Assembly: GCA_023395435.1 (NCBI GenBank)
Contig: JAEWZG010000061.1
Span: 14,296 to 78,295, forward strand
Direction: 5' to 3'
Length of the DNA: 64,000 nt
DNA from: Bacillota bacterium
Lineage (GTDB): Bacteria; Bacillota; Clostridia; Oscillospirales; Ruminococcaceae
This document shows positions 56,681 through 61,354 of the stretch, piece by piece. Positions within the stretch are counted from its first letter, which is position 1; each line of letters opens with the position of its first letter. Under the pieces are notes generated by a model. That model had not been told where the DNA came from. It did not search any database and worked only from the letters and a program-made list of their open reading frames with translations. A program made the translations under genes and the position numbers.

Positions 56681-57229
56681 TTACGAATATAGTTTTTTCA
56701 GTAGTTCTGCCTGATATTCCATAACATCTTCAAAATCAGATGTATCACCATCAATTATACTACGGGCTAAATTACGCACTGCAATTGATAATCCATCTAT
56801 TACACCAGACATATTTTCTAATATAATTTTTTCTCTTTGTTTAATTTTTGTTACTGAATTATTATCAACATCTTTTAATAAAAATAATTCATTATCGCAT
56901 TTATTCATATAATTAGAAAGAGTATATAGATTAATAGCCTTTGAAGCTTCCTTACATTCTCCAAAAAACACCTTCTTATCTGGAAATTCTCCATTGCAAA
57001 GTTCTATAAAAGCAACTCCAATATTTGCACCAGCAAAATACCAAAATATTTCCACGCCTATTGATTTGCTAACATATCTTATAACTACTTCTTCATCAGG
57101 ATAATAATCATTATTATTAATTATAGATTCTATTCTTTTATATCCCATTTCTTCTAAAAATTTAAAGTCCTTTTCTACTTGAAAAATAAAATCCATTATT
57201 ATTTTTTCCACTTCTCCACCTGCTTTCAT
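56681..57229 (-). CDS. Candidate immunity protein of orphan cassette 2
   Basis: 182 aa cytoplasmic protein. Start overlaps the toxin stop in ATGA (57229-57226). Confidence 0.55.
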   Translation of the reverse strand: MKAGGEVEKIIMDFIFQVEKDFKFLEEMGYKRIESIINNNDYYPDEEVVIRYVSKSIGVEIFWYFAGANIGVAFIELCNGEFPDKKVFFGECKEASKAINLYTLSNYMNKCDNELFLLKDVDNNSVTKIKQREKIILENMSGVIDGLSIAVRNLARSIIDGDTSDFEDVMEYQAELLKKLYS

Positions 57230-58305
57230 GGATTATATTTTATAACATTTGGATATTTCCAATTTTTATAAACACTTCTATTTTCAACACCATAAAATGG
57301 ACTTCTTACAGTTCTGCCAGGATAAATTCCAATATCTATTACAGTAGAACCTTTATCTTTTGTCCAATACCTAATCCAAGAACGATTAGCCTCAATATCA
57401 TTAACATTGAGATTTCCTGGAGAAGACCTGAAATTCCTTGGATTATATGTTTTTACATTATATCCTGACTGTTCCAATTGCTTTGCCACAGGATTCACCC
57501 TGTCCATATTTTCTCCAATTACAACTACTGGTTTGTCTTTTGAAATATTTCCAATTATGCCATCCGTTTTTCCAGTTCCATTAATTATATTATCTGTCTT
57601 ACTAACTGCTTTTGCAGAATCTACAAGTTTATCGCCTTTTTTTATAGCTTTGCTAGCTAACTTTCCGCCAGAGCCTATATCTCCAACAATTGGAACGATA
57701 GAAAAGCCCGAAATTCCAGCATTAACCCGATCACCTTCATAAGCATAAATTGCAGCATTCAGTGGGTCCGCAACATATTCAACGACAGGAATAAATCCTA
57801 AAGCATCCAGTGTGTCATGTATATTTGGTGCGTTCGGATCTTTTACTTGTATGGCTTTACCACCAGGTTTTAATTCTGTTATTTTTGCACCTGAATTTAC
57901 TTGCTCAGGTATACCTTTTCATTTTTTATATAAGTACGATTCATTTTCTTTAGATTTATAATATTCCGTTTTTAGCTCATTAACTTGCTGTGCAATTAAT
58001 TTTTTCCTCAAGGTGGGATCTAACACTTTTGGTAATTGAGCATCGCAAGAACGCCAAAGTGCATCATTCAATTTCTGTGCCTTTTGTAGGTTAGTAAAAA
58101 TATTTTTAAGCGAGGAGAACATACTTGTTATAGGTGAAATAATTCTTTGTATTGTTCTTATCGCTGGTTGTAATGTATTGCTAATTTCATCTGCTCTGTT
58201 TCTTAATCTTTCTACTAAATCTTTTGAAATATGCCCACTCGGGTCAATTAGATTAAGTGGATTATTTTGTGTGTAAGAGTAAAGATTCTGCGTAAGTGGA
58301 TTCAT
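57226..58305 (-). pseudogene. Orphan Rhs-CT toxin (cassette 2) interrupted by one in-frame TGA
   Basis: Track ORFs 57919-58305 and 57226-57507 share one frame. My translation of 57508-57918 is open (KGIPEQVNSGAKITELKPGG...FIPVVEYVADPLNAAIYAYEGDRVNAGISGFSIVPIVGDIGSGGK...). The only stop is TGA 57921-57919. Confidence 0.75.
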
Positions 58306-58367
58306 TACGTCGCCTTGAACAGTATCCTATAATCTGAATTGTTTTACCATAATTATACTACATCACT

Positions 58368-58413
58368 TTTTAGATGTAAAGATAAAGGCCACATCAGATA
58401 AAACTGTGTGACC
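58368..58413 (-). repeat. 46-nt cassette-end element E2
   Basis: Copy of E1/E3, directly downstream of the 67-aa ORF. Confidence 0.8.
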
Positions 58414-58425
58414 TTACTTAATGCA

Positions 58426-58629
58426 TTAATCAATGATATCTGCAATATACAATGGGATATTAACATCTATTCTGTTTCTTAAACATTCCATATGGCAAAA
58501 TAGCTGTTGTTCTTGCTGTAAATCTTGTCGTTTATCCCAGTTTGACAATACCACCAGTGATGTAATATCAATATCATTAGATTCTATATGCTGACCACAA
58601 AAACAGCATTTATATTTCTGACTGTTCAT
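58426..58629 (-). CDS. Small CxxC...HxxC zinc-ribbon-like protein
   Basis: 67 aa (KCCFCGQHI...FCHMEC). A single-gene unit between elements E3 and E2. Confidence 0.45.
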   Translation of the reverse strand: MNSQKYKCCFCGQHIESNDIDITSLVVLSNWDKRQDLQQEQQLFCHMECLRNRIDVNIPLYIADIID

Positions 58630-58706
58630 TCACTAGCACCTCACTTCCATCCATAATTTTTACTTAGTCTGTCTAATAAGCATTTCCAACATTATAATAT
58701 ATAGCT

Positions 58707-58752
58707 TTTGAGATGTAAAGAAAAAGGCCACATCAGATAAAACTGTGTGACC
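58707..58752 (-). repeat. 46-nt cassette-end element E3
   Basis: Copy of E1/E2, directly downstream of the 125-aa immunity candidate. Confidence 0.8.
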
Positions 58753-58765
58753 TAGTTTTATTAAT

Positions 58766-59143
58766 TTATACCCTTTTCACTTCCACCTGCTGACAAAGTA
58801 TAGAAACATCTATTGGACCACCTTGAATTTTGAATAAGTAATACTCATCGCTCTCAGGAATAGCTGGGCTATCTGAAAATGAAAATGAATAGTTCATTTT
58901 TTCAAATTTCAAGCTTACATCATCTTTTTCAAGTTTGAAAGAACTAACGTCTAGAACTAAACATGGCAATGTTTCTTCATTTGGCTCAAACGTAGTATGA
59001 TAATTAAATGCAAATATATTTTTACAGTATATTTCACCTACATCATTTCCATTCGAAGAATTATAGAATTCAAATTTAATATCATTTTTCGACTCAACAA
59101 AAGCCATTTTATTTAGCATCACTTCGGTAAAAATATTCTCCAT
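58766..59143 (-). CDS. Candidate immunity protein of the main Rhs toxin
   Basis: 125 aa. RBS AGGTGG. Starts 21 nt after the toxin-frame stop. Confidence 0.55.
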   Translation of the reverse strand: MENIFTEVMLNKMAFVESKNDIKFEFYNSSNGNDVGEIYCKNIFAFNYHTTFEPNEETLPCLVLDVSSFKLEKDDVSLKFEKMNYSFSFSDSPAIPESDEYYLFKIQGGPIDVSILCQQVEVKRV

Positions 59144-59164
59144 ACCTAACCACCTATCTACTAA

Positions 59165-61354
59165 TTATTTACCTGGTTTTGGAGGTAAGAATGTTCCGTC
59201 TCCAATTGTATCAACAAATTCCCCAGTGTTGTGTCCTCCATTAGGTACAGGAGTCCCATCCCACTGATATCTTACAGTTATCTTTCTTGAGTTATCTGGC
59301 AACCACTCTTTTTTTGTTGTTATTATTTCTCCATTAGGTCTGATATCTACCCTCATCCCATCATCACGCATATATGTTACATAACCGCCTTCTGAAGTAC
59401 CATTACATCTATAGCCTTTATTCAGTAAGTCATTATGAAGGTCTACACGATTCTTCGGAATTGCATTAACAGTCTTAGGCGTTCCCTCAGTAACCGATTT
59501 CGGCAACTTAACAGCTGGCTCAAGCCTATCTTGAACTTTAAGTAATTTACTTGCATTACAATCCGCTTTTGCAGCTTTCGATATAGCTATCATTACTGCT
59601 AAATCAACAGTAATCCTACCAGATACATTACCTCTTTTATATGCGCTTCCATTAATAATATCATTATAAAAAGACTTCTTTATATTATTATAAGTACCAA
59701 CGCCCAAGTCTTTTAGCATCGCACCTTCGCTTACATATGGTAATACGTAATGTTGTTTATATTCCAAATAAACTTCACTAAGTTTATATGTATTATATGG
59801 AATATTTACTATATCAAATGGCAGTTCCACTATTCTTTGCATAGAGCCTATTGTAAATCCTCTTCTATAATTGCTTACATCTTTTAGGCTCGCATTTTAT
59901 CCCATAACATTTAATGCCTGAGAATAACTATTGTCCTTTGGAGCATAAATTACATCAATAACATCCATTGCAGGACTATCATTAAATTTTTCTAATGAAT
60001 CAGTTAAAAACTTTTTTGCTTTTTCAAACCAATGCCCACTCGGATCAATTAAATTAAGCGGATTGTTTCCACAATAAGCGTAAAGATTCTGTGTAAGTGG
60101 ATTCATTACATCGCCTTGAACAGTATCCTGAGTTAAGAATCTTCCTGTTGCAGGGTCATAATAACGTGCTCTTAAGTATTGGAGGCCAGTTATGTAGTCA
60201 TAACTCTCACCGTTATAACCATATGTGTTGAAGTTTGACCAACCAGATTCCCTCTGATTACCAAATTCATCATATTTATATGATACCATATTATAGCCAT
60301 ATTGTGAAGTTAAATTTGATACAGAGCCTCTTCCGTCATACATATAATAATCTTTTTCCCATGCATTTTCAGCGCTGTTCATGCCATTACCATATGTATA
60401 TGTTTTTGGGTTATAGCAACTTGCAGTTTCCTCTGCAAGAACCTGTGTATATTCGTTATTAACATCATTAACATAAGATGTTGCTTTATATTGTCCGTTC
60501 CAGTCGCCTGAATAATTGTTTGGAATATATACTCTGTCAGAAGGATGTGTATATGCATCCTTCATCAATCCATCAACAAATTCATTGAACTTATTATCAG
60601 TCTCGAACTTCTTTGATGGCAATTCACTATCACTATTACAGCCACCAGTATAAGTAAGTCTGCTGTTAAAGTCATTGTCATATTCCATCTGGTTATGATT
60701 ATGACAACCGAAATCTTCAAGTCCAAGTGTAAATACTCTATCTCCATTACCATCATAAAGAGCAGCCATCAAAAGTCTTCCGTTGCCTCTGATTGCTTAT
60801 AATCTGTTTTCAATAGTATAGTTATACTCTACAACTTTTGTACCATTGGTGTCAACTTTGACAAGATTACCGTTTACATCATATGTATATGCCTGATTGA
60901 ATCTACCTGCACTGTCAATAGTTTTTAGTCTGTCTGCTTCATCATAATTATATTTTGTAGTGTATTTATTATTGTTAATAGATTCATCCATCTGAATACG
61001 ATTGCCACAAGCATCATAAGCATATTTTACGTATTTTGTAGTTCCTTTTTGGGTTTCCTTAACAATTTCAAGTTCTCCTCTGCCATTATACCCATATTCA
61101 TTGACTACTTTAGTGTAATCCTGTTCAATTTCTTCTTTTGTAATATTTCCTAAAGAATCATATTCATACTGGAAACAAGAGATTACTCTGCCCCATTTTT
61201 CATAGTTGGTAAGTTTTGAAACCTGGTTAAGCTTGTTATATTCAGTTATCGTTTTTGTATCATTTGGTCTTATTGTCTGAGTAAGATTTCCTTTTTTGTC
61301 ATAGACATATAGATTCTCAATATCTTGTTGAACATTTGTTGAACATTTTATCAA
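59165..61354 (-). pseudogene. Rhs/YD-repeat toxin remnant: 5'-truncated core plus C-terminal toxin, with two in-frame TAA stops
   Basis: YD repeats (YEYDSLGNIT, YAYDACGNR, YTYDVNGNL), RYYDPATGRF and the core end NPLNLIDPSGH. Track ORFs 60797-61354, 59897-60772 and 59165-59842 are all in one frame, separated only by TAA 60799-60797 and TAA 59899-59897. The frame opens right after the tRNA-Thr terminator. Confidence 0.8.

Follow-up and report, generated by a model that had tools for sequence, protein, structure and literature searches.

The window analyzed in this study is a stretch of 64,000 nucleotides (nt) from an uncultured Ruminococcaceae bacterium of the class Clostridia (Bacillota; GenBank assembly GCA_023395435.1, contig JAEWZG010000061.1, positions 14,296 to 78,295). 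Its minus strand carries an array of rhs-derived gene fragments that starts just downstream of a tRNA-Thr gene and comprises three units, referred to here as cassettes A, B and C, together with presumed immunity genes. A first-pass annotation had interpreted cassettes A and B as an Rhs toxin locus that is silenced only by three in-frame nonsense codons. Our results show that these stop codons are genuine, inherited mutations. However, cassette A is itself no more than the 3' part of an rhs gene, cut off at position 61313 and devoid of ~2220 N-terminal residues and its start signal, and cassette B is an orphan tail; neither of them could yield an exportable toxin even without the stops.

The window belongs to a metagenome-style assembly of 1.97 Mb (G000; 154 contigs, 96.8% complete). 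It was compared with two congeners, namely G003 ('MAG: Bacillota bacterium OH_PBB_123'), the source of an intact Rhs protein of 2865 amino acids (aa) named P0001, and G002, which was used for the comparison of the sequence downstream of tRNA-Thr. Further comparisons involved L019, a second strain from a different sample that has another cassette order and one extra cassette and encodes a 398-aa orphan (P0003), L017, an independent metagenome scaffold from the European Nucleotide Archive (ENA), and L020, a metagenome sequence that represents the closest relative of cassette B outside the species. Profile searches were run on the individual open reading frame (ORF) pieces separately. The features that carry the argument are the following.

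61414..61489 (-): tRNA-Thr(GGU) gene, identified with ARAGORN; the rhs fragment array starts just downstream
61364..61398 (-): intrinsic terminator of tRNA-Thr, a 16-bp stem and a T-run, directly upstream of the first rhs fragment
61303..61322 (-): 5' truncation junction with ~10-14 nt of microhomology (ATCTATATGTCTAT), located by alignments
59165..61313 (-): cassette A, a 5'-truncated rhs fragment that holds stops 1 and 2 (PF05593, TIGR03696 and alignment to G003)
60797-60799 (-): stop 1 (TAA) in cassette A; a Lys codon in the intact G003 gene, also a stop in L019
59897-59899 (-): stop 2 (TAA) in cassette A; part of a tandem two-base change, found in the window lineage only
59168..59491 (-): putative toxin domain of cassette A, with a conserved GGHNTGEF motif
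57226..58341 (-): cassette B, an orphan rhs tail that holds stop 3 (TIGR03696, C152 paralogue and toxin-domain homologues)
57919-57921 (-): stop 3 (TGA) in cassette B; a Trp codon in L020, also a stop in L019
57229-57573 (-): putative toxin domain of cassette B, which recurs at the ends of other polymorphic toxins

Truncated and orphan rhs cassettes

Cassette A is made up of the last ~442 residues of the Rhs core region, a ~190-aa linker and an unclassified putative toxin domain of ~108 aa. Its first ORF matches RHS repeats (PF05593, E=3.1e-17 on 60800-61354; TIGR01643, E=5.9e-8), and the second one covers the Rhs-associated core domain from end to end (TIGR03696, positions 1-76/76, E=1.5e-21 on 59900-60796). 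The core ends in a DPSGH motif at ~60032, which is also the point where similarity to G003, G002 and the C152 contig of the same assembly stops. In the intact congener protein P0001, a signal peptide is followed by a LysM domain, a DUF6531 domain, 39 RHS repeats, the core and an Ntox37 toxin domain, with a tetratricopeptide repeat (TPR) gene located downstream. Cassette A matches only residues ~2221-2662 of this 2865-aa protein, its homology starting at window position 61313, ~50 nt past the tRNA terminator. It has no signal peptide, no ribosome-binding site and no ATG and lacks the ~2200 codons of the N-terminal shell (~2220 residues), and its first ORF begins with a TTG directly after the T-run of the terminator. 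A complete N-terminal delivery region and a full repeat shell are thus absent from the window, their place upstream of the fragment being taken by tRNA-Thr and its terminator. G002 matches the sequence downstream of the tRNA gene up to ...ATCTATAT(T)TCTAT and diverges thereafter, and Rhs homology begins at this very point in the window. Because the shared sequence ends there, the junction appears to be an illegitimate join across the short microhomology.

When the own assembly was searched with P0001 by tblastn, no close full-length rhs gene was found in its 96.8%-complete sequence; the search recovered a 5'-truncated fragment and an orphan on contig C152 as well as a distant Rhs (~25% identity) at the edge of contig C130. 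The C152 locus (G000:C152:7301-10100) constitutes a second rhs array, which contains a 554-aa fragment that is 5'-truncated and has an uninterrupted tail; a 116-aa gene lies downstream of this fragment, and the orphan comes next. The gene on C130 (C130:1-3768) encodes a distinct Rhs with ~25% identity to the G003 protein, whose 1256-codon open frame runs off the contig start, and represents the only possibly functional Rhs in the assembly. A scan of genome contigs with the core piece of cassette A returned only the two congeners and a distant match in the Anaeroplasmataceae, and the tail of cassette A gave no match in the contigs scanned.

Cassette B retains only the last ~21 core codons (DTVQGDVMNPL...DPSGH), equivalent to positions 57-76/76 of TIGR03696 (the last 20 positions of the core domain), followed by a linker and an unclassified putative toxin domain of ~115 aa. 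As potential start signals, it contains an in-frame ATG within the DVMNPL motif and a weak AAGG upstream of it, bases that full-length genes likewise conserve as coding sequence. The end of the core is present as a block of 95-102 nt in three copies (60025-60126, 58224-58325 and 56478-56579), which share 81-94% identity. As in typical orphan modules consisting of an rhs C-terminal region (rhs-CT) and an immunity gene, cassette B thus opens with a short conserved core segment able to support homologous recombination. It does not, however, lie downstream of a full-length rhs gene, the upstream 'main' copy being itself 5'-truncated.

Both putative toxin domains terminate unrelated polymorphic-toxin scaffolds in metagenomes, including LXG-like, DUF4280, Hint/intein-containing and RHS proteins. 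Neither of them produced a significant match in Pfam (E up to 10), in a PDB profile search or in a Foldseek comparison with the PDB. In AlphaFold2 models of the two domains (predicted local distance difference test scores of 69.5 and 75.4), the cassette A domain is predicted to combine one helix with a five-stranded sheet, and the cassette B domain to adopt a flavodoxin-like alpha/beta fold. The GGHNTGEF motif recalls the His motif of microbial RNases, and a weak match to colicin D (E=0.26) was noted; both leads are unsupported and are not claimed here. Two ENA gut-metagenome scaffolds (L066 and L067) contain a related Rhs locus with a barnase-family (PF00545) orphan and barstar, and a cassette B toxin homologue comes immediately after them, together with its 176-182-aa partner. 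This arrangement illustrates how these putative toxin tails are shuffled between arrays.

The toxin fragments are interspersed with the following genes and elements.

58766..59143 (-): putative immunity gene A, 125 aa, NGO_1070-like (PF22300, E=1.9e-11, positions 1-98/99); AGGTGG ribosome-binding site upstream; intact
58683..58769 (-): cassette-boundary element, copy 1 (repeat family D2; 11/12 in the promoter scan)
58426..58629 (-): 67-aa Cys-rich ORF, alone between two boundary elements in the window
58344..58430 (-): cassette-boundary element, copy 2, upstream of cassette B
56681..57229 (-): putative immunity gene B (intact; 182 aa), with an ATG that overlaps the toxin TGA (ATGA)
56596..56682 (-): cassette-boundary element, copy 3, upstream of cassette C
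56233..56583 (-): cassette C, a stub of an Ntox37-type tail, the same tail as in the intact G003 Rhs; outside the range of the first-pass annotation
55421..56140 (-): TPR-repeat gene, 5'-truncated by a 508-bp deletion; homologue of the gene downstream of the G003 Rhs

The proposal that immunity genes have been retained at this locus holds for the two genes adjacent to the broken toxins, since the product of gene A covers the full PF22300 profile and that of gene B, with 182 aa, is as long as the 176-182-aa partners encoded behind homologues of the cassette B toxin elsewhere. The assignment of toxins to immunity proteins is presumptive, being based on position and on family hints, namely PF22300 for gene A and the conserved 176-182-aa partner for gene B. 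In L019, the 67-aa ORF (L019:3585-3788) sits 12 nt after a P0003-type toxin whose toxin domain is gone from the window, and it is probably the stranded immunity gene of this toxin. Cassette C has suffered a 508-bp deletion (junction 56296/56297), which removed its toxin domain and the toxin stop codon as well as the ribosome-binding site, the start and the first ~27 codons of the downstream TPR gene, the presumed immunity gene of the G003-type Rhs toxin.

The boundary element comprises 87 nt, in which a GC-rich hairpin with a bulge and a T-run precedes TTTACA-N17-TATAAT (11/12 in the promoter scan). Cassettes B and C and the 67-aa ORF each have this promoter-like site ~35 nt before them, and further copies of the element are found in L019 (3784-3870 and 5532-5620) and L020 (~1985-2070). 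It looks like a combined terminator and promoter that would make each cassette its own transcription unit. The array is also framed by other repeats. The 3' part of tRNA-Thr recurs 9 kb away as a direct repeat of 55 nt (52389-52443 and 61407-61461; 87% identity), so that the array and an AraC/ABC-2 cassette lie between the tRNA gene and its remnant, in a manner reminiscent of a genomic island. In addition, two 75-nt direct repeats (52784-52858 and 55358-55432; 85% identity), each with a terminator-like hairpin, flank the regulator/ABC-transporter cassette that adjoins the array.

The three in-frame stops

All three stops are present at the positions given in the first-pass annotation. The minus-strand frame running from 61354 to 59165 is broken solely by stops 1 and 2, and that from 58305 to 57226 solely by stop 3. 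At stop 1, P0001 aligns without gaps to window positions 61312-60032 (93% nucleotide identity) and has a Lys codon at the site. At stop 2, P0003 from L019 is identical over ~230 nt around the site and reads Tyr-Asp in place of the stop-Asn of the window. At stop 3, the homology to the C152 paralogue of this genome continues in frame on either side, and L020 has a Trp codon. Since homologues match on both sides of each stop, the continuity of the frames goes beyond the mere presence of open frames, and relatives (G003, P0003 and L020) contain sense codons at all three positions, in line with the comparison of orthologous loci that had been recommended. The continuous frame described earlier as an Rhs core plus toxin is therefore real as a frame, but its 'core' is merely a 3' fragment.

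Alignment to relatives revealed no frameshift within 57226-61313, and the sole length difference from the close relative L019 is an in-frame 27-bp indel in the linker of cassette A (~59763-59789). The notion that the ~3.3 kb of toxin-coding sequence are free of indels is thus correct with respect to frameshifts, but it applies only to this interval and fails in neighboring and sister copies. L019 carries stops 1 and 3 and lacks stop 2; among the relatives, only this near-identical strain has any of the stops. As stops 1 and 3 are common to a differently arranged strain from another sample, they represent inherited mutations rather than assembly errors. Together, these results identify the three stops as genuine inherited nonsense mutations.

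Probable fate of the toxin fragments

The occurrence of three nonsense codons without frameshifts had been regarded as unusual for neutral decay. By calculation, 5.4% of all possible single-base substitutions in the two frames give rise to a stop codon. Assuming ~0.05-0.2 frameshifting indels per substitution, a range taken from mutation-accumulation studies, three point lesions would all be nonsense mutations with a chance of roughly 1-14%, an estimate that depends on this indel ratio. The nonsense-only pattern is thus mildly unusual, for a pattern picked after the fact; our literature search returned no usable published nonsense-to-frameshift proportion for bacterial pseudogenes. Even this mild deviation vanishes once the set is widened to include cassette C, C152 and L020. 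Compared over ~630 nt with the intact L019 copy, the C152 orphan shows three 1-bp deletions and a further one of 3 bp, and L020 shows a 1-bp deletion in an A6 run, three bases from the stop-3 codon, that produces a -1 frameshift. Considering these lesions together with the deletion in cassette C and the 27-bp indel, frameshifts and deletions are as common as nonsense mutations in these fragments. Most likely, the nonsense-only pattern in cassettes A and B is a small-sample coincidence.

We favor, with a probability of about 80%, the explanation that the locus has undergone the ordinary erosion of toxin fragments stranded by the loss of their delivery gene, with immunity genes A and B being kept as protection against relatives that deploy the toxins. 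The ancestral state would have resembled that of the congener, with a full-length gene (signal peptide, LysM, DUF6531, 39 RHS repeats, core and Ntox37) followed by the TPR gene. Illegitimate recombination beside tRNA-Thr may then have left only the last ~440 core codons and a toxin tail, now seen as cassette A. The two orphan tail/immunity cassettes B and C would have remained downstream, with no close full-length rhs gene in the assembly to recombine into. Without a delivery part, selection on the toxin fragments would have been lost, and decay could have followed, through two nonsense mutations in A, one in B and the 508-bp deletion in C. Immunity genes A and B persist, probably shielding the cell from relatives that still fire these toxins, and the boundary elements of the downstream cassettes could drive immunity gene expression. 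We infer, in this scheme, the lost selection on the toxin parts, the continued selection on the immunity genes and the promoter activity.

Exchange between copies appears to have shaped the array as well. A comparison of window positions 61360-60032 with L019:139-1467 revealed no differences between 61360 and 60464 (~900 nt, including stop 1), followed, past 60464, by 43 differences in ~420 nt (~10%) in a region in which the window resembles the second orphan of L019. This sharp mosaic is consistent with deletion or gene conversion between tandem cassettes.

Several observations weigh against the erosion of stranded fragments as the explanation of the locus. Relative to the intact G003 gene, the ratio of non-synonymous to synonymous substitution rates (dN/dS) amounts to 0.097 in the segment before stop 1 and 0.066 in the segment after it (0.077 overall, with a dS of 0.33), and only one lineage-specific non-synonymous change was detected in 120 polarisable core codons. 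Because dN/dS is low and lineage-specific changes are few, there is no independent sign of long neutral decay; either the stops are recent or the fragments have been refreshed by gene conversion. Given that there are few neutral changes overall, three stops also make up a somewhat high share. Moreover, the promoter-like sites before cassettes B and C and the in-frame ATG in cassette B leave unproven the assumption that the fragments are not expressed and hence neutral, and a full-length rhs gene may sit on an unassembled piece of the incomplete 154-contig assembly. Comparing dN/dS on the two sides of the stops, as had been suggested, thus uncovered no relaxed constraint on either side of stop 1. 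This result is uninformative as a test of relaxation, and the low dN/dS is not evidence of function, because most of the divergence predates the truncation and the fragments swap sequence with other copies.

It is possible, if unlikely, that the stops were selected. In this case, the cassettes would be live units of a toxin tail and an immunity gene, each transcribed from its boundary promoter, with the toxin part translated from an internal ATG. The stops would then be adaptive knock-outs that end self-intoxication and leave immunity-only units, with transcription undisturbed and the transcript still reaching the immunity gene. The TTTACA-N17-TATAAT motif (11/12) ~35 nt upstream of cassettes B and C and the 67-aa ORF, which is kept in L019 and L020, and the in-frame ATG in the DVMNPL motif of cassette B with AAGG before it agree with this scenario, but cassette A has no such promoter and lies behind a strong terminator. 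All three stops are located upstream of the toxin domains, a placement that is, however, expected by chance, with 85% of cassette A and 69% of cassette B lying upstream. The intact state of immunity genes A and B and the otherwise little-decayed flanking sequence would also be in accord with selection, and Salmonella orphan Rhs toxins are reported to be expressed from internal promoters (PMC7043789). Yet a frameshift would silence a toxin equally well, leaving the nonsense-only pattern unexplained, and it is frameshifts and deletions that have inactivated the sister copies. None of the observations calls for this minority reading. If it were true, the silencing of orphans by nonsense mutations would recur under selection in these gut Clostridia, as opposed to arising by neutral decay.

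We consider it improbable that the stops are real gene boundaries and that the ORFs behind them are independently translated into intracellular toxins, as in toxin-antitoxin pairs. Each stop is followed by an ORF with an ATG or TTG start, such as the 225-aa ORF starting with the ATG at 59842, and orphan Rhs elements of Salmonella reportedly act much like type II toxin-antitoxin modules (PMC7043789). However, the relatives have sense codons and read straight on through these positions, stop 2 is missing in the nearest relative, the ATG at 59842 has no evident ribosome-binding site before it, and the first ORF starts at a TTG right after the T-run of the terminator. The existence of genuine boundaries in homologues, which the first-pass annotation had named as grounds for refutation, is thus not borne out.

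Still less credible is the synthesis of a continuous protein by way of a suppressor tRNA, a reassigned codon or leaky termination, which the same annotation had raised in the form of low-level readthrough. The frames are intact on either side of each stop, and stop 3 corresponds to Trp in L020, as it would under a code with TGA=Trp. However, two different stop codons are involved, and all three triplets act as stops genome-wide: 791 long ORFs end in TAA (601), TAG (124) or TGA (66), with a further in-frame stop located a median of 5-7 codons beyond, depending on the triplet (TGA, 5 codons). The genome uses the standard code, and no suppressor tRNA with a stop-reading anticodon is present among the 30 tRNAs found in the incomplete assembly. 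With no mechanism for readthrough found, an alternative genetic code or suppressor tRNA was rejected; any readthrough product would still be missing ~80% of the Rhs shell along with the signal peptide. Finally, a sequencing or assembly error or a chimeric contig can hardly account for the stops, even though the genome is a 154-contig metagenome-style assembly and internal stops can be assembly artefacts (PMC11017572), as the independent ENA scaffold L017 is 100% identical over 8,378 bp, the ORFs around stop 2 recur on a Logan contig from run SRR13400996, 4-6 contigs (NCBI, ENA and Logan; the longest 207 kb) contain the broken ORFs in exactly this form, and stops 1 and 3 recur in a structurally different strain from another sample.

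Relation to known polymorphic-toxin loci

In enterobacteria, orphan rhs-CT/rhsI and cdiA-CT/cdiI modules are located downstream of Rhs and contact-dependent growth inhibition (CDI) genes (PMC3150448; PMC3967940). One orphan rhs of Yersinia pseudotuberculosis IP32953 has extra retained core and an in-frame stop, and orphan immunity genes have been argued to be expressed and useful (Poole et al., 2011; PMC3150448). In-frame stops have, as such, been described in orphan rhs fragments before (PMC3150448). Like the enterobacterial orphans, the tails described here open with a short conserved core ending in a DPxG motif, are each followed by their own presumed immunity gene and form a tandem array whose members recombine with one another. 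The enterobacterial orphans generally lack translation starts; of the tails described here, cassette A shows neither a ribosome-binding site nor an ATG, and cassette B has the in-frame ATG with the weak AAGG before it. Unlike those orphans, the tails of the window reside in an uncultured Gram-positive-type Clostridia lineage, in which the full-length gene of a congener encodes a Sec signal peptide and a LysM domain, in place of the PAAR/VgrG context of type VI secretion systems (T6SS). Moreover, the main gene is itself truncated, with no close recipient gene in the assembly, and a hairpin-plus-promoter element marks each downstream cassette boundary.

WapA-type Rhs/YD-repeat toxins of Bacillus subtilis are reportedly exported by the Sec pathway. 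The congener protein shares their layout, in which a long YD-repeat shell lies between a signal peptide and an Rhs-associated core and a variable C-terminal toxin comes last, with a presumed immunity gene encoded downstream, whereas the window keeps only the last ~440 core residues, without an export signal, and its two putative toxin domains have neither a Pfam family nor a PDB match in sequence or fold. Arrays of immunity genes that remain after the displacement or decay of effectors have been described for the T6SS of Vibrio cholerae (PMC5361080) and the type VII secretion system of firmicutes (PMC9484751). The array described here resembles such loci, as reported, in that immunity is kept while the cognate toxin is displaced, truncated or inactivated, and in that recombination of tandem paralogous cassettes shapes the array. 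It differs in that most of its toxin-coding sequence is present and only lightly damaged and in that the TPR gene, which is presumed to confer immunity, has itself been truncated.

Collectively, our findings indicate that the ORFs in this region are best annotated as pseudogenised orphan Rhs tail fragments and not as a silenced complete toxin gene. The two putative toxin domains and the cassette-boundary element, a candidate terminator plus promoter, are new to current family libraries. Unless a larger survey proved it systematic, the nonsense-only pattern would carry little weight. If the toxin fragments were indeed stranded by the loss of their delivery gene, the array provides a Gram-positive example of a polymorphic-toxin locus that erodes after this loss while its immunity genes stay.

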